From: Candidatus Woesearchaeota archaeon
Lineage (GTDB): Archaea; Nanobdellota; Nanobdellia; Woesearchaeales; GW2011-AR9
DNA length: 64,000 bases
Assembly (NCBI GenBank): GCA_018670095.1
Contig: JABHRR010000040.1
Span: 7,331 to 71,330 of the forward strand
Reading direction: 5' to 3'
Under the pieces are notes generated by a model. It was not told where the DNA came from. It searched no databases and saw only the letters and a list, made by a program, of their open reading frames with translations. Made by a program: the position numbers and the translations under genes. The first letter of the stretch is position 1; each line of letters begins with the position of its first letter. Positions 40,210 to 47,782 of the stretch are shown in pieces.

Positions 40210-41262
40210 CTAACTATTAGAAGCATTTCGCATCTTCAATTCTTCCTCGGCGTCTTTTAAATCATGCTCAACCATTAACTTAACTAGTTCTTTGAATTTG
40301 ATTTGAGGGTCGAAATCGAAAGCATTCTTGGCTTTAGAAATATCACCGAGAAGTGTACTAGTCTTACTTGGACGAGCAAATCTTTGATCAAATTCTAAAT
40401 AGTCATCACAATTTAATCCAACACAAGAAAAAGCTTCTTCTAAGAATTCTCGAACAGAATGTACTTCACCAGTACAGATGATATAATCGTCTGGTTTTTC
40501 TACTTGCATCAATTTCCAAGCAGCTTCCATATATTCTCGAGCATAACCAAAATCAATCTTTGTATCTAAATTACCAAGATGAATTTTATCTTGCAACCCT
40601 AACTTAATTCGAGCAGCAGCTTTGGTTATTTTTCGAGTTACATAGTCGTCTGTCCTACGCGGAGATTCATGATTATAAAATATACCTGTACAAACATGCA
40701 TCCCAAAAACTTCCCGATAAAAACGACAAAGAGTGTAAGCAAAAGCTTTTGCTGCTGCATAAGGACTTTGTGGTTTGAAAGCAGTTTCTTCATTTTGGGG
40801 AATCTCTACAGCTTGACCAAACATATTAGAAGAAACCGGTTGAAAATATTTTATCTTGGGATCAATCTGTTTAATTATTTCTAAAATTCTAGCAACTGCT
40901 CCCGCAGTAATATCGCAAGTATAATCTACAGAAGCAAAACTCCAAGTAACATGGTCCTGATCCGCTTCGTTATAAATTTCATCTGGACGGACTTCGTTAA
41001 TTACTCTGTAAACAGAAGTTGCATCTGCTAAATCGCCTTTATGTAAAGTAATCTTTTCTTCTTTGTCTTTGATTAAATGATTAATGTTAACAGTATTTCC
41101 AGTGGCAGACTTTCTAATAAAACCGTGCACTTCATAACCTTTCTCAAGAAGCACTTCCGCTAAATAAGATCCGTCTTGGCCAGTTATTCCAAAGATTAAT
41201 GCTTTCTTTTTTCTTTGTTCTAGGTTTTGTTCTGGTTGTGCTATATTTTGATTTGTTTCCAT
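40210..41262 (-). CDS. gmd: GDP-mannose 4,6-dehydratase (paralog 2)
   Basis: FGITGQDGSYL, IRKSATGNTVNINHL, YAAAKAFAY. I placed the start at the Met before METNQ. The longer ORF reaching 41331 would read the (AAT)11 repeat as poly-Asn and overlap the upstream gene. Confidence 0.75.
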   Translation of the reverse strand: METNQNIAQPEQNLEQRKKKALIFGITGQDGSYLAEVLLEKGYEVHGFIRKSATGNTVNINHLIKDKEEKITLHKGDLADATSVYRVINEVRPDEIYNEADQDHVTWSFASVDYTCDITAGAVARILEIIKQIDPKIKYFQPVSSNMFGQAVEIPQNEETAFKPQSPYAAAKAFAYTLCRFYREVFGMHVCTGIFYNHESPRRTDDYVTRKITKAAARIKLGLQDKIHLGNLDTKIDFGYAREYMEAAWKLMQVEKPDDYIICTGEVHSVREFLEEAFSCVGLNCDDYLEFDQRFARPSKTSTLLGDISKAKNAFDFDPQIKFKELVKLMVEHDLKDAEEELKMRNASNS

Positions 41263-41268
41263 TTTTTT

Positions 41269-41300
41269 ATTATTATTATTATTATTATTATTATTATTAT
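41269..41300. repeat. (ATT)n / (AAT)11 trinucleotide simple sequence repeat between the GNAT gene stop and the gmd paralog 2 start
   Basis: Read directly: attattatt... of about 32 nt. The TAA stop codons of the GNAT gene lie inside the repeat. Confidence 0.9.
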
Positions 41301-41854
41301 TGAGTTTTATATTCAATTGGACAAGGTTCATCGCTAATTCTCTTTACCATAACAACCTCAACATTACCATCGCCAACAAACCCCTTAATCTCACCAGCAA
41401 CTTCATAACCAGCTTTAGTATAAATATTCTGGGCTTCTTGATTAGACAAATTAGTAGTAAGATGTAATGTTCTTAAATTTATGCCTACTTCTCTTTGTGA
41501 TTCTACAAATAAATTACTAGATTCATTTATTAAATATGATCCTATCCCTTGACGTTGGTAATCTTTCCCAACTGCAAGCATCTCTAAAATAGCAGTCCCA
41601 TTATTTGGAGGATGATTCATAAACCAAGCAAAACCTACTACTTCGTCATTTTCTTTGGCAACATAAACGCGTTCATGTTCACGTTCGAGAGAAGCAGAAA
41701 AAGAGTAATCAACATTTTCATTAAAATCATGAGGCCCATAAACAAAATCTTGTTTTAAAGTTCCTTCTAAAACTTTTGCAATTCCAGAAATCTCTTTCCT
41801 TTGTGCTTCAACAATTTTTATTCTGTCCATAATGTCTATTTTTTGTCTTTCCAT
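41297..41854 (-). CDS. GNAT-family N-acetyltransferase
   Basis: Acetyl-CoA binding motif QRQGIGSYL; 185 aa. Confidence 0.65.
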   Translation of the reverse strand: MERQKIDIMDRIKIVEAQRKEISGIAKVLEGTLKQDFVYGPHDFNENVDYSFSASLEREHERVYVAKENDEVVGFAWFMNHPPNNGTAILEMLAVGKDYQRQGIGSYLINESSNLFVESQREVGINLRTLHLTTNLSNQEAQNIYTKAGYEVAGEIKGFVGDGNVEVVMVKRISDEPCPIEYKTQ

Positions 41855-45519: not shown

Positions 45520-45980
45520 ATGTAATCACCTTCTTTATTTGTTTCTTTAACGTCTCTTTTCTCGTTCTCTCGGCCCCGATAAGGACCTTGTTTAAGTTCA
45601 ATCACTTTAGTATTATCTTCTAAAAAAGTGAAACCATGACCACAATTAAGAATTATGGAATCTCCTGTATTCACAATCACTTCAGAAATTTTAAGATCAT
45701 TCTCACTTTCATCATAGAGATCAATCTTAATACTTCCTGAGATAATATAAAAAAATTCTTGCACTGGAAAATTTGTCAGTTGAGAAAAAGGAATATGAAC
45801 ATGAGGAGTGCAAACATCACCCTTTGGCCGATTATGCATTCCTACTTGAAATGGAAATTCGTCCGGACTAACAAACAACATACTTTTACCAGATTGTTCC
45901 AATTCTTGCAATGCCTTAGCTCGAGTAACAATTGCGAGAATCTTACCGTTACGCTCTATTCTTTCTATTGAATTTTCCAC
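45516..45980 (-). CDS. WxcM/FdtA-like cupin (NDP-4-keto-6-deoxyhexose 3,4-ketoisomerase), putative
   Basis: 154-aa cupin with the His pair PHVHIP; 4-nt overlap with the aminotransferase gene. Confidence 0.5.
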   Translation of the reverse strand: MENSIERIERNGKILAIVTRAKALQELEQSGKSMLFVSPDEFPFQVGMHNRPKGDVCTPHVHIPFSQLTNFPVQEFFYIISGSIKIDLYDESENDLKISEVIVNTGDSIILNCGHGFTFLEDNTKVIELKQGPYRGRENEKRDVKETNKEGDYI

Positions 45981-46063
45981 TTTAAACTACCTAATTTCAA
46001 TTAATAAAGTCTTAATCCAATCTTTATATAAAAAGGTTATGGGCTTAAAGAAGATATTAAGAA

Positions 46064-47782
46064 TCAAAATCTTCTCTTTCTGAAAACAAGATAAAAAACA
46101 AAAGGAATACTTAATATTGCAAGAATAACATCTAACCACAAAATAAAAAATCCAACCCCCTCAACTACTTTTTCAAAACCAGTTGCTTGATAATAATCAA
46201 CAGCTTGTTCTGGATATTTCCAACCAACCGGATAAAACCAAAACTGATGTGTTTTATCAATAGCTTCCAACGCTTCGTTTGGTAAACTGATTTGTCCTTG
46301 ATAAATTAAGAAGTGATGGGTTGCTTTTACTTCGCCCACTGATTGCAAATTTTCTTTGAAATAAGTACTGATTTGTTCTCCAGTATCAAAAACACGTTGA
46401 AAGTCTTCGGGTTTCCAACCACAATTAGTTCCTGGACCACACTCGATATAATACAAAGGCACAGTAACTTTGTTTGGAGCATCTTTAACTTGTTCCATTA
46501 AATCAAAGAAATGCGTTCCTTCAAAATAATGTTTATCATTAAAGACCCATGCATGAATACCACGATAAATTCTAGGATCAATTACAACGACAGCATTGTT
46601 GGGAATGTTTTCGTGTGTATATTCTCGTAATGCTAAGGTTATTGATTGTTCACGTGACTCTTTTAGTTCCGGGATTATAACAAAGAAAGTAATCATTAAT
46701 ATGATGATAATTACAAATGAGCTGAGATGTTTAAAATTAAATTTCTGTTTTATTTTCTCTGATAATAAAAAAATAGAATAAGCAGAAAAAACACTAAATA
46801 TTGCTGAAATCCAAATATAATGACTTCCACTACCTGTCTGGCCAGCTAAATAAACAAAAGGAAAAACAATGGACAAAATAAACAAAGAAGCAACTAAACG
46901 ATTTCTTTTAAAATAATATATTAATCCGAGGAGTCCAAAAATAAAAATAAAAGGTTCTAATTTTAATAATAATAAAATCTTACCGCTGGTTATACTTGTA
47001 AGTTTATCAAATGACCATTCAGTTTTCATCCCTTGATGGACCGTTTCTCCAATTCCTAAAACATTTGAAAAGAAATAATCTGTTATTCCCTTTTCTTGAT
47101 AAACAAGATAATTATAAGAAAATATTGGGATAATTAAAATTATAAAAATTAATGCACAAAAAAGAACTAATTTAATGTTTTTTGGGGACAAAATGAAACT
47201 GCCGTCTTTAACAAGATTACTTTGGGAATACTCTTTAATAATCCAAATGACAGCAAGAATGGGAACAAAAAGAATTGCAATTGGTTTTACTAAAATACCT
47301 AAAGAAAGAAATAAAGTGGCAAGATATAAATGATGATGATTTTTTAACCCACGAATAAAAAATAAAATACTGAGGAAAACAAAAAAATAAGCAAGCATAT
47401 CCATCTCATAATTAAATTTTATTGCATGTCCTGAAAAAGCAAAAAGAAAAGCAGCAAAAAGAGCATTTTTTTTATTGTCAAACAACTCTTTGGCGATTAA
47501 AAAAATAATAAAAACAGAAAGGGCACCAAATATAATTGCAGTTAATCTCAAAGAGATGGGAGTAATCCCACCAAACAATTTATAGCTAATATCTGTAAGA
47601 TAAAAAAATAGAGGTGATTGTTCTATTGTTCCCAATCTATCTGCAGAAATAATATTTAATGGAATAATGGAGTAAATCATCTCATCGGTGGATACATCCG
47701 TATTATTAGCGGCATAAATCCTAATAACAAATGCTAAGATAAATATTATAACCAAAAAGATTAAAGTTTTTGTAACTTTCAT
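46064..47782 (-). CDS. GT-C membrane glycosyltransferase (PMT_2/ArnT-like, GT39/GT83-type), no. 1
   Basis: First-loop acidic motif STDEMIY and the pattern SLRLTAIIFGALSVFIIFLIAKELF typical of ArnT/PMT; many TM helices. Confidence 0.6.
   Translation of the reverse strand: MKVTKTLIFLVIIFILAFVIRIYAANNTDVSTDEMIYSIIPLNIISADRLGTIEQSPLFFYLTDISYKLFGGITPISLRLTAIIFGALSVFIIFLIAKELFDNKKNALFAAFLFAFSGHAIKFNYEMDMLAYFFVFLSILFFIRGLKNHHHLYLATLFLSLGILVKPIAILFVPILAVIWIIKEYSQSNLVKDGSFILSPKNIKLVLFCALIFIILIIPIFSYNYLVYQEKGITDYFFSNVLGIGETVHQGMKTEWSFDKLTSITSGKILLLLKLEPFIFIFGLLGLIYYFKRNRLVASLFILSIVFPFVYLAGQTGSGSHYIWISAIFSVFSAYSIFLLSEKIKQKFNFKHLSSFVIIIILMITFFVIIPELKESREQSITLALREYTHENIPNNAVVVIDPRIYRGIHAWVFNDKHYFEGTHFFDLMEQVKDAPNKVTVPLYYIECGPGTNCGWKPEDFQRVFDTGEQISTYFKENLQSVGEVKATHHFLIYQGQISLPNEALEAIDKTHQFWFYPVGWKYPEQAVDYYQATGFEKVVEGVGFFILWLDVILAILSIPFVFYLVFRKRRF

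Follow-up and report, generated by a model that had tools for sequence, protein, structure and literature searches.

What sugar does the minus-strand gene cluster at positions 40210-47782 of a 64-kb stretch of DNA from a Candidatus Woesearchaeota archaeon build, and how would that sugar cross the membrane? The stretch (64,000 nucleotides; assembly GCA_018670095.1, contig JABHRR010000040.1, positions 7,331 to 71,330) is referred to below as the window. A sequence-only reading, made without database searches, had proposed an operon for a lipid-linked 3-acetamido-3,6-dideoxyhexose, possibly with a C-methyl branch, built on a GDP- or NDP-4-keto-6-deoxyhexose. On the basis of profile, structure and comparative searches we favour, with a probability of about 0.6, a GDP-mannose-derived, C-methylated and N-acylated amino-6-deoxyhexose that is loaded on dolichyl phosphate and then transferred outside the membrane, as a modular glycan decoration of DPANN archaea. 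Two points go beyond the earlier reading: an orphan cupin family tied to Per-like aminotransferases, and a large subfamily of Gmd proteins tied to sugar C-methyltransferases. The literature that we searched describes no GDP-linked pathway to a C-methyl amino sugar.

The open reading frame (ORF) listing places all eight minus-strand genes at exactly the coordinates and in the order first assigned to them. In order of transcription these encode a GT-C-type glycosyltransferase (GT-C), a cupin, a DegT aminotransferase, a family 2 glycosyltransferase (GT2), a GtrA-like protein, a C-methyltransferase, a GNAT protein and a Gmd-family short-chain dehydrogenase/reductase (SDR), here called Gmd1. Neighbouring genes are separated by anything from a 14-nt overlap to 83 nt, the exception being an annotated 35-nt overlap between GNAT and Gmd1. 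Pfam returned strong domain scores for seven of the eight products and sub-threshold scores for the cupin. When all window proteins were compared by tblastn with 57 cupin-bearing loci (loci are given L numbers), the block of GT-C, cupin, aminotransferase, GT2, GtrA, C-methyltransferase and Gmd1 was found to recur on independent contigs at 35-80% protein identity. The same gene order in dozens of independent contigs means that the arrangement is not due to chance. The closest contig, from a Woesearchaeota metagenome-assembled genome (MAG; L005), encodes proteins 90-100% identical to those of the window in the same order.

The branch of the sugar would come from the C-methyltransferase (41857-43158, minus strand, 433 aa). 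Pfam identifies PF08421 (Methyltransf_13, 2e-12), PF13489 (Methyltransf_23, 5e-10) and a C-terminal PF08484 (Methyltransf_14, 1.4e-40, 139 bits), the last of which bears out the sugar C-methyltransferase with a complete C-terminal domain that had been proposed. The mycarose 3-C-methyltransferase 4RV9 aligns to residues 27-431 (4.7e-48), and KijD1 and TcaB9 are also full-length matches (~1e-34). Like TylC3, EryBIII, TcaB9 and KijD1, the protein has three domains, the four zinc-site cysteines (C30, C33, C71 and C74) and the H238-E239-H240 motif, all of which argues for a genuine sugar C-methyltransferase of the TylC3/TcaB9 type. Enzymes of this type act by themselves on dTDP sugars, or are accompanied by a normal Gmd as in Coxiella, where virenose provides the proposed GDP-route precedent for a C-methyl sugar, made by a Gmd, a C-methyltransferase and a reductase (PMC3539893); here, by contrast, the enzyme is tied to a Gmd paralog with a Glu-to-Asn change and to an aminotransferase. 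An exact-sequence look-up of the window C-methyltransferase returned no database record.

That paralog is one of two Gmd homologs in the window. Gmd1 (40210-41331, minus strand; PF16363, GDP_Man_Dehyd, 1e-105) closes the eight-gene block, and the canonical Gmd2 (36743-37879, plus strand, 378 aa; PF16363, 1e-125) lies outside it. Both are highly similar to solved GDP-mannose 4,6-dehydratases, Gmd1 to Arabidopsis MUR1 (4e-104) and Gmd2 to the Aquifex and Pseudomonas enzymes as its best PDB matches (~1e-112). Measured against TIGR01472 (cutoff 415), Gmd1 scores 381.8 and the canonical Gmd2, at 409.9, also falls just short. The catalytic residues of Gmd are Thr, Glu, Tyr and Lys (PMC3539893). Gmd1 reads SSNMFG (N169) at the motif that is SSEMFG in MUR1, and Gmd2 keeps TSE. 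Asn replaces the catalytic Glu in every Gmd1 ortholog with a readable motif in the loci examined and in 118 of the 120 closest database relatives of Gmd1, not one of which has Glu, and all Gmd2-type genes keep the Glu. This residue is the acid/base of the dehydration step. Gmd1 retains Y-x3-K (SPYAAAK, read by hand as Y191/K195), NHES and GITGQDG, and seven other positions discriminate its subfamily, including the invariant new residues D124 and D126, by which the AAQSHV loop becomes ADQDHV. The annotated ORF of Gmd1 opens with a run of 11 Asn, a poly-Asn extension otherwise present only in its closest relative; other orthologs start about 40 residues later, and the true start is probably M24. 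No mention of a Glu-to-Asn Gmd paralog was found in the literature searched.

The gene neighbourhood of the Asn-type proteins is as consistent as their motif. Throughout the cupin-seeded loci, the C-methyltransferase and Gmd1 travel together with a few exceptions. To obtain an independent sample, metagenomes were scanned with the peptide FQPxSSN and the neighbourhood analysis was repeated: a C-methyltransferase lay within 2.5 kb of 31 of the 33 distinct Asn-type genes that had at least 2.5 kb of flank on both sides, and where the flanks were at least 8 kb it was present in 14/14, together with the aminotransferase of the cluster in 12/14 and the cupin in 10/14. Glu-type genes occurred near a C-methyltransferase essentially only if an Asn-type gene was also present (7/8). 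Look-ups of three Asn-type proteins placed the C-methyltransferase directly upstream in two cases, with a 4-nt overlap, and with a NUDIX gene between in the third; two of the three had a trio of a Gmd, a 135-137-aa unnamed protein and a DegT protein nearby.

Could Gmd1 be an ordinary GDP-mannose 4,6-dehydratase with a relocated base, for example D126, as the simple linear pathway of the earlier reading would have it? The similarity to MUR1, the intact Ser/Tyr/Lys and cofactor motifs and the annotation of Gmd1 in all sources as a GDP-mannose 4,6-dehydratase agree with this, and the two new invariant Asp residues of the loop could replace the base. However, replacement of the Glu is universal in the subfamily, as is its retention in the paralog encoded alongside. 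The same locus nearly always has a canonical Gmd too, which would leave Gmd1 redundant, and Gmd1 is linked to the C-methyltransferase and not to the start of the pathway. E-to-Q mutants of the E. coli and human enzymes are reportedly inactive, as Somoza 2000 and Pfeiffer 2019 are said to have found. We regard an ordinary dehydratase as very improbable. We predict instead that Gmd1 is a C4 oxidoreductase (or an epimerase) that does not dehydrate its substrate, and the label GDP-mannose 4,6-dehydratase should not be applied to it. The dehydratase that the sequence-only reading had placed in the operon is thus the Glu-to-Asn paralog, and Gmd2, which lies outside the coordinates considered at that time, is the likely real source of GDP-4-keto-6-deoxymannose; its strong homology suggests that it would perform the first step by converting GDP-mannose to this intermediate. 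Gmd1, with its Ser/Tyr/Lys redox machinery kept, would most likely supply or remove the C4 keto group needed by the methyltransferase, and the two would act as an add-on pair that puts the C-methyl branch on the same sugar.

Between dehydration and branching, the keto sugar would be aminated. The aminotransferase (44368-45519, minus strand, 383 aa; DegT, 2e-125) has its pyridoxal-phosphate lysine, K185, in an SFYANK motif. Its best PDB match is the Caulobacter perosamine synthase 3BN1 (3.6e-96, 325 bits; 3BN1, 3DR4 and 3DR7 all score ~4e-96), against 2.5e-71 and 244 bits for the C3 enzyme QdtB, and it reaches 348 bits against the LegC family. These scores place it in the clade of GDP-perosamine synthases (Per). 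Gmd and a Per-like aminotransferase act on GDP-4-keto-6-deoxymannose in the GDP-perosamine and mycosamine pathways as well (Gmd with Per/RfbE; AmphDIII with AmphDII), but those lack a cupin, a C-methyltransferase and a second Gmd, and their products go to Leloir transferases and not to a lipid phosphate. The GDP-hexose scaffold proposed earlier is supported by the two Gmd-family genes, by Per as the best solved relative of the aminotransferase and by NUDIX genes in related loci. CDP-glucose, which had been offered as another precursor, is unlikely: the rfbF-like gene (62563-63261) is part of another cluster at a distance of 15 kb, and all scaffold enzymes of the present cluster are GDP-type.

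The carbon that receives the amine is harder to name. Synthases of perosamine (C4) share 69-73% identity with those of mycosamine (C3), and no diagnostic motifs separate the two (PMC8944477). Such alikeness means that the position of the amine is not readable from sequence, and the '3-amino' of the earlier reading is therefore not established, the higher score being that of the C4 enzyme. A regiospecific acyltransferase was sought 3' of the Gmd-cupin-aminotransferase trio in ten other loci and was not found; the genes there encode only GT4 transferases, NUDIX hydrolases and class I methyltransferases.

The cupin (45516-45980, minus strand, 154 aa) overlaps the start of the aminotransferase gene by 4 nt, and the two are adjacent in about 50 of the 57 cupin-seeded loci, directly preceded by a Gmd2-type (Glu) gene in many archaeal and bacterial ones. 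We take this pair to be the universal core of the module in archaea and bacteria. From this context, the translationally coupled pair would rearrange and aminate the keto sugar in a second step. A separate observation is that an SDR 26-28% identical to, and distinct from, Gmd occurs near the cupin-aminotransferase pair in L029, L035, L038, L043, L044 and L057, either some 1 kb upstream of the cupin or at another place in the locus; its motif YS(T/S)SEVYG resembles UDP-xylose synthase or the ArnA decarboxylase, and with such neighbours the pair may also act on other NDP-4-keto sugars.

The label 'FdtA-like' that the cupin had been given fails every profile test. Pfam shows no match to FdtA (PF05523) at E ≤ 0.01 and none to RmlC (PF00908), nor is RmlC found by any other profile, in line with the earlier view that the protein is not an RmlC-type epimerase; what remains is sub-threshold Cupin_2, and WbuC in NCBIfam (TIGR04366, 28 bits against a curated cutoff of 42), a gene that appears in the literature searched in resistance-island genome papers only, as an unstudied neighbour. 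Searches of PDB sequences at E ≤ 10, with the single sequence and with a 40-sequence profile, gave no FdtA, QdtA, FdtD or RmlC and only chance-level cupin matches; a designed TIM barrel returned by the PDB search was discarded as spurious. Foldseek with an AlphaFold2 model (pLDDT 87.6) found nothing in the PDB at E ≤ 1e-3, and the best fold matches, all weak (E ~1e-2), were HppE/Psf4, the ketoisomerase domain of FdtD (TM-score ~0.43) and the GDP-sugar 3-epimerase WbcA (TM-score ~0.39), with RmlC as a weak match only. Relatives of the cupin are mainly from DPANN archaea (labelled Nanoarchaeota or Woesearchaeota), with few from bacteria. A profile search of 5.8 billion proteins retrieved 289 relatives. 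The best 120 of these 289 have no Pfam domain, Cupin_2 or, once, Cupin_3, in no case PF05523, and are named no more precisely than 'hypothetical' or 'M6P-isomerase-like cupin'. By these profiles the cupin is a member of an uncharacterised orphan family and not of FdtA, RmlC or WbuC.

Within the 40-sequence alignment H60 is invariant, H62 nearly so, and Q74-E75, H115 and a C-terminal KQGPYRG are conserved. The pattern reads as a classic two-motif cupin metal site with a basic tail that could hold a diphosphate; HxH is also a generic metal motif of cupins and is not specific to FdtA or QdtA. A 2022 review of polyene sugars states that no 3,4-ketoisomerase for GDP-4-keto-6-deoxymannose had been identified and that its isomerisation proceeds slowly unaided (PMC8944477). 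The cupin is predicted to act on this compound as a 3,4-ketoisomerase or an epimerase; since it is an orphan by profile, ketoisomerase activity is inferred from context only. The FdtA/FdtB/FdtC and QdtA/QdtB/QdtC systems similarly have a small cupin beside a DegT aminotransferase, followed by an N-acyltransferase. Unlike them, the window has a cupin with no detectable relationship to FdtA or QdtA, GDP in place of dTDP and a GNAT in place of a left-handed beta-helix acyltransferase.

We give about an even chance to an amine at C3, as in mycosamine, with the cupin as a 3,4-ketoisomerase, and slightly less than that to an amine at C4, as in perosamine, with the cupin as an epimerase. Spelled out in full, the C3 route is a tentative proposal: the cupin would isomerise the keto group, the aminotransferase would act at C3, Gmd1 would re-oxidise C4, the methyltransferase would act at C3, as TcaB9 and EvaC do on 3-amino-4-keto sugars, and C4 would be reduced again to give a 3-amino-3-C-methyl-3,6-dideoxyhexose. 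The adjacency and 4-nt overlap of the cupin and aminotransferase genes resemble the FdtA/FdtB and QdtA/QdtB pairs, the cupin is small and has the HxH pair, the FdtD domain is among its best fold matches, and the C-methyltransferase is a full-length match to the 3-amino-sugar enzymes TcaB9 and KijD1. The route also explains why Gmd1 is needed exactly when the C-methyltransferase is present and why it can do without the dehydration base, and slow spontaneous isomerisation (PMC8944477) would account for loci with C-methyltransferase, Gmd1, aminotransferase and Gmd2 but no cupin. Against it stand the missing profile or sequence link between the cupin and FdtA or QdtA, with fold matches that are weak, the higher score of the aminotransferase against Per than against QdtB, and the best match of the C-methyltransferase, TylC3, which acts on a 3-hydroxy sugar. 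Nor do we know of a precedent for an SDR that hands a keto intermediate over to another enzyme and later takes it back.

The corresponding C4 route appears doubtful when it is worked through. Here the aminotransferase would act at C4 like Per, the cupin would be a C3 and/or C5 epimerase, and C3 would be methylated before amination, giving a 4-amino-4,6-dideoxy-3-C-methylhexose with a kansosamine-like skeleton that receives an N-formyl or N-acetyl group, as happens in the Arn and WbkC systems. For a TylC3-like enzyme no route is chemically shorter, and this one fits several resemblances: the best solved relative of the aminotransferase is a GDP-perosamine synthase, the formyltransferase encoded upstream resembles the ArnA domain and WbkC, both of which are 4-amino-sugar enzymes, GT2 resembles ArnC, which carries a 4-formamido sugar, and WbcA is among the fold matches of the cupin. 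However, it gives the strictly coupled Gmd1 no task, and the cupin does not match RmlC-type epimerases. To our knowledge, known perosamine pathways need no cupin. A Per-like sequence, moreover, is not predictive of regiochemistry (PMC8944477).

N-acylation may have more than one source. The GNAT (41297-41854, minus strand, 185 aa; GNAT Pfam matches ~1e-15) has weak matches to RimI, PseH and WecD, all far below the NCBIfam cutoffs, and generic PDB matches. It is found among cupin-seeded loci only in L005 and L006, the closest relatives, and in L014, and it follows Gmd1 in L064 and L071; it looks like a late, lineage-specific insertion between the C-methyltransferase and Gmd1 and is possibly an amino-sugar N-acetylase. 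The 'acetamido' group, the weakest element in the title of the sequence-only reading, thus depends on a generic protein missing from most orthologous clusters, and a formyltransferase is encoded upstream (51664-52509, minus strand, 281 aa; Formyl_trans_N, 1.6e-22). The best PDB match of the latter is the ArnA formyltransferase domain (5e-15), and PseJ, QdtF and the GDP-perosamine N-formyltransferase WbkC (3e-9) also match; the gene is syntenic in L003, L004, L005, L012, L014, L021 and L022. It is likely a sugar N-formyltransferase that provides an alternative N-acylation. A divergently transcribed fusion of 5-formyl-tetrahydrofolate (THF) cyclo-ligase and FolD (53425-54897, plus strand; PF01812, PF00763 and PF02882) would supply it with N10-formyl-THF, and in L003, L004, L005 and L014 the formyltransferase block likewise has folate genes beside it. 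Other loci have class I S-adenosylmethionine-dependent methyltransferases 3' of the aminotransferase. The amine may be formylated, acetylated or methylated depending on the lineage, and here a fourth step might be carried out by the GNAT, by the formyltransferase or by both.

The earlier proposal of a polyprenyl-phosphate route stands, with a DPMS/ArnC-like GT2, a GtrA-family protein and a GT-C encoded together in conserved synteny. GT2 (43653-44381, minus strand, 242 aa; Glycos_transf_2, 1.8e-36) consists of a catalytic domain only, and its best PDB match is the dolichyl-phosphate-mannose synthase (DPMS) of P. furiosus (5MLZ, 2e-41), followed by ArnC (3e-15). The GtrA gene begins 2 nt 3' of it (43216-43650, minus strand; PF04138, GtrA/DPMS_TM, 9e-11) and encodes a protein of 144 aa with four transmembrane (TM) segments, colinear with the TM domain of the P. 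furiosus enzyme at a score that is not significant; Pfam names PF04138 the 'GtrA/DPMS transmembrane domain'. Like that type-III DPMS (PMC12992685), GT2 keeps the SRY phosphate-binding motif. Unlike it, the enzyme is split into two genes and the donor motif DADxQHPP reads DCDLGLSP, so that the donor is probably not plain GDP-mannose. DADxQHPP and a fused GtrA-like TM domain define type III (PMC12992685), and the GT2/GtrA pair has neither; even so, the two proteins look like a split type-III-DPMS-like enzyme. A 2026 paper proposes that the GtrA-like TM domain of DPMS flips Dol-P-Man (PMC12992685), and the GtrA-like protein is a candidate flippase for the lipid-linked sugar. By homology, GT2 would move the sugar from GDP to dolichyl phosphate as a fifth step and the GtrA-like protein would probably flip the product.

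For the last step, the GT-C is predicted to be the transferase that draws on the lipid-linked sugar at the extracytoplasmic side. This protein (46064-47782, minus strand, 572 aa; PMT_2, 1.7e-16; PMT, 2.3e-7) has about ten TM helices and a C-terminal external domain, and its first external loop contains an acidic motif, T-D-E-M; NCBIfam gives a weak match to Agl23, and no match was found among PDB sequences. Its gene is directly upstream of the cupin gene in most DPANN loci. As a PMT/ArnT-like enzyme, possibly with paralogs, it would transfer the sugar to an acceptor outside the membrane.

The co-directional minus-strand array is longer than the eight genes first considered and runs from 53331 to 37895. 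Five genes of the array are transcribed ahead of the GT-C. They encode, in turn, a second GT2 (GT2b; 52543-53331, 262 aa; Glycos_transf_2, 1.5e-34), with which the array begins, the formyltransferase, a second GT-C (GTCb; 50174-51643, 489 aa; PMT_2, 4.6e-11), a polytopic membrane protein of 651 aa (48137-50092) that has some 12 or more TM-like segments, and an 84-aa protein (47873-48127), all on the minus strand, and the whole block down to the GT-C is syntenic in several lineages. GT2b has weak, below-cutoff NCBIfam matches to AglJ, to a dolichyl-phosphate hexose transferase and to ArnC, and GTCb has a T-D-E-M motif after TM1 and a weak match to ArnT. The 651-aa and 84-aa proteins match nothing in Pfam or NCBIfam. 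With a single N-terminal TM helix and seven cysteines in its tail, the 84-aa protein always lies between the 651-aa protein and the GT-C, in many DPANN loci and at 43-75% identity, and its role could be that of acceptor, chaperone or transferase subunit.

With two synthases and several GT-Cs in the window, a second possibility arises: the cupin and aminotransferase (with the formyltransferase, GT2b and GTCb) could make and deliver an unbranched amino sugar, and the methyltransferase, with Gmd1 as a 4-ketoreductase, could make a 6-deoxy-3-C-methylhexose resembling evalose or virenose that is loaded by GT2 and GtrA. GT2, GtrA, C-methyltransferase and Gmd1 are indeed gained and lost as a unit, being absent from L012 and L014 where all else is kept. 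Across loci GT2 co-varies with the C-methyltransferase/Gmd1 pair, and GT2b accompanies the cupin-aminotransferase pair, sometimes together with the formyltransferase, where the C-methyltransferase block is missing. Some Gmds are also 4-reductases, and the virenose proposal combines just such activities (PMC3539893). However, the aminotransferase accompanies 12 of the 14 Asn-type genes with long flanks, and the genes are often interleaved: all five soluble enzymes share a single bacterial operon in L046, L074 and L124, in the order Gmd2, cupin, C-methyltransferase, Gmd1, aminotransferase in L046, and the cupin-less loci run C-methyltransferase, Gmd1, aminotransferase, Gmd2. L001 and L055 have a single GT2 and a single GT-C alongside all four tailoring genes. 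Two sugars therefore seem unlikely to us, and one branched amino sugar probable.

Among known systems, the Arn pathway of Gram-negative bacteria offers a close parallel in its sequence of events: amination of an NDP-4-keto sugar by the DegT enzyme ArnB, N-formylation by ArnA, transfer to polyprenyl phosphate by the GT2 ArnC, flipping by the small membrane proteins ArnE/F and use by the GT-C ArnT outside the membrane; GT2, the formyltransferase and GTCb here weakly match ArnC, ArnA and ArnT. The differences are that the scaffold is a GDP-hexose and not a UDP-pentose, that a C-methyltransferase, a cupin and a Gmd paralog are added, that no ArnD-like deformylase was seen, that GT2 is closer to archaeal DPMS, that the carrier is presumably dolichyl phosphate and that the acceptor is not lipid A. 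The Gtr system (GtrA/GtrB/GtrV) and the archaeal AglD/AglR/AglS system also encode a synthase, a small GtrA-type protein and a GT-C together, but they move plain glucose or mannose, whereas the synthase here sits within a tailoring pathway for a modified GDP sugar. Functionally the cluster thus appears closest to the Arn and Gtr/AglD/R/S systems, with a GDP-perosamine/mycosamine front end and TylC3-type branching added.

Several points weigh against a single branched, N-acylated amino sugar on dolichyl phosphate. In profile, PDB and fold searches, no characterised sugar isomerase or epimerase proved significantly similar to the cupin, and the role of Gmd1 is deduced solely from a missing residue and gene linkage. 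The GNAT, generic in sequence, is lacking in the majority of the orthologous clusters. As GT2 has no DADxQHPP motif, its donor sugar is not readable from sequence, and two synthases with three large polytopic membrane proteins, two of them GT-C-like, may mean more than one lipid-linked sugar. The linkage itself has exceptions, with a C-methyltransferase without Gmd1 in L020, GT2 and GtrA without a C-methyltransferase in L021, and a C-methyltransferase with Gmd1 but no aminotransferase in L078. Finally, the archaeal assignment comes from MAG labels and not from marker genes in the window.

One related contig concerns the range of hosts in which the cluster occurs. L001 (GCA_016188115.1, JACPIK010000002.1, 1.47 Mb) is labelled Candidatus Woesearchaeota archaeon and carries the cluster of GT-C, cupin, aminotransferase, GT2, GtrA, C-methyltransferase and Gmd1, together with a full sigma-70 gene with regions 2, 3 and 4 (locus 877-2529). 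Either the contig comes from a bacterial or chimeric MAG, or bacteria have the cluster as well, which would bear on the lipid carrier used.

NUDIX hydrolases of 150-165 aa with a plain PF00293 domain recur inside the sugar modules of related loci and are not found in the window cluster. Examples lie at 10413-10868 in L045, 1499-1990 in L047, 6203-6700 in L059, 1027-1482 in L061 and 17762-18253 in L001, either between cupin and aminotransferase or beside the C-methyltransferase/Gmd1 pair, which recalls the GDP-mannose mannosyl hydrolase of GDP-sugar clusters. The idea that they are EvaA-type 2,3-dehydratases was rejected on their size (~150-165 aa) and plain PF00293 domain.

The 3' side of the eight-gene block holds two unknown proteins and a HAD-IIB phosphatase, followed by the convergent Gmd2. 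A pair at 37895-39658 (minus strand), made up of the HAD-IIB phosphatase-like protein and of a protein of 316 aa that has no known domain, also adjoins the cluster in L001, L005, L011, L017, L055, L062 and L071; in L003 an NTP-transferase gene stands beside it, and the pair may serve the supply of sugar-1-phosphate or GDP-mannose precursors.

The remainder of the window is one large glycan-biosynthesis island with nonulosonic-acid genes, synthesis of 3'-phosphoadenosine 5'-phosphosulfate (PAPS), a sulfotransferase, Wzx-like flippases and an inositol-phosphate lipid module. Its G+C content is about 30% throughout, the cluster region being compositionally not distinct, and a tRNA scan of the whole window found none. 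Three fusions stand out in the island. A 931-aa protein (7511-10306, plus strand) joins a pyruvate-kinase barrel, a PUA-like domain, ATP sulfurylase and adenosine 5'-phosphosulfate (APS) kinase in an unusual four-part architecture for PAPS supply, and the sulfotransferase gene near it (3058-3879) suggests sulfated glycans. The neighbouring nonulosonic-acid-like cluster encodes a 538-aa fusion of a hexapeptide acyltransferase with a DegT aminotransferase (17507-19123, minus strand) and a 682-aa fusion of a CMP-sugar cytidylyltransferase with a class III aminotransferase (19991-22039, minus strand).

What, then, would the cluster add to the biology of these organisms? Taken jointly, it is an unlikely but specific proposal that the cupin is the missing isomerase of GDP-4-keto-6-deoxymannose, a step for which mycosamine biosynthesis has no known gene, and that Gmd1 is a new keto-regenerating SDR that transiently re-oxidises C4 of a GDP-amino-6-deoxyhexose for TylC3-like methylation; if true, this would be a new route to 3-amino-3-C-methyl sugars that needs no 2-deoxygenation, with export on dolichyl phosphate in DPANN archaea. 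Irrespective of the route, the cupin is a concrete candidate for a 3,4-ketoisomerase (or epimerase) acting on GDP-4-keto-6-deoxymannose. More than 100 database proteins named 'GDP-mannose 4,6-dehydratase' lack the dehydration base and are tied to a C-methyltransferase, which points to a likely mis-annotation and a likely new activity. DPANN cell surfaces mediate attachment to the host and their glycans are essentially unknown; the cluster, which is conserved in many genomes of Woesearchaeota and Nanoarchaeota, predicts a specific and unusual surface sugar.

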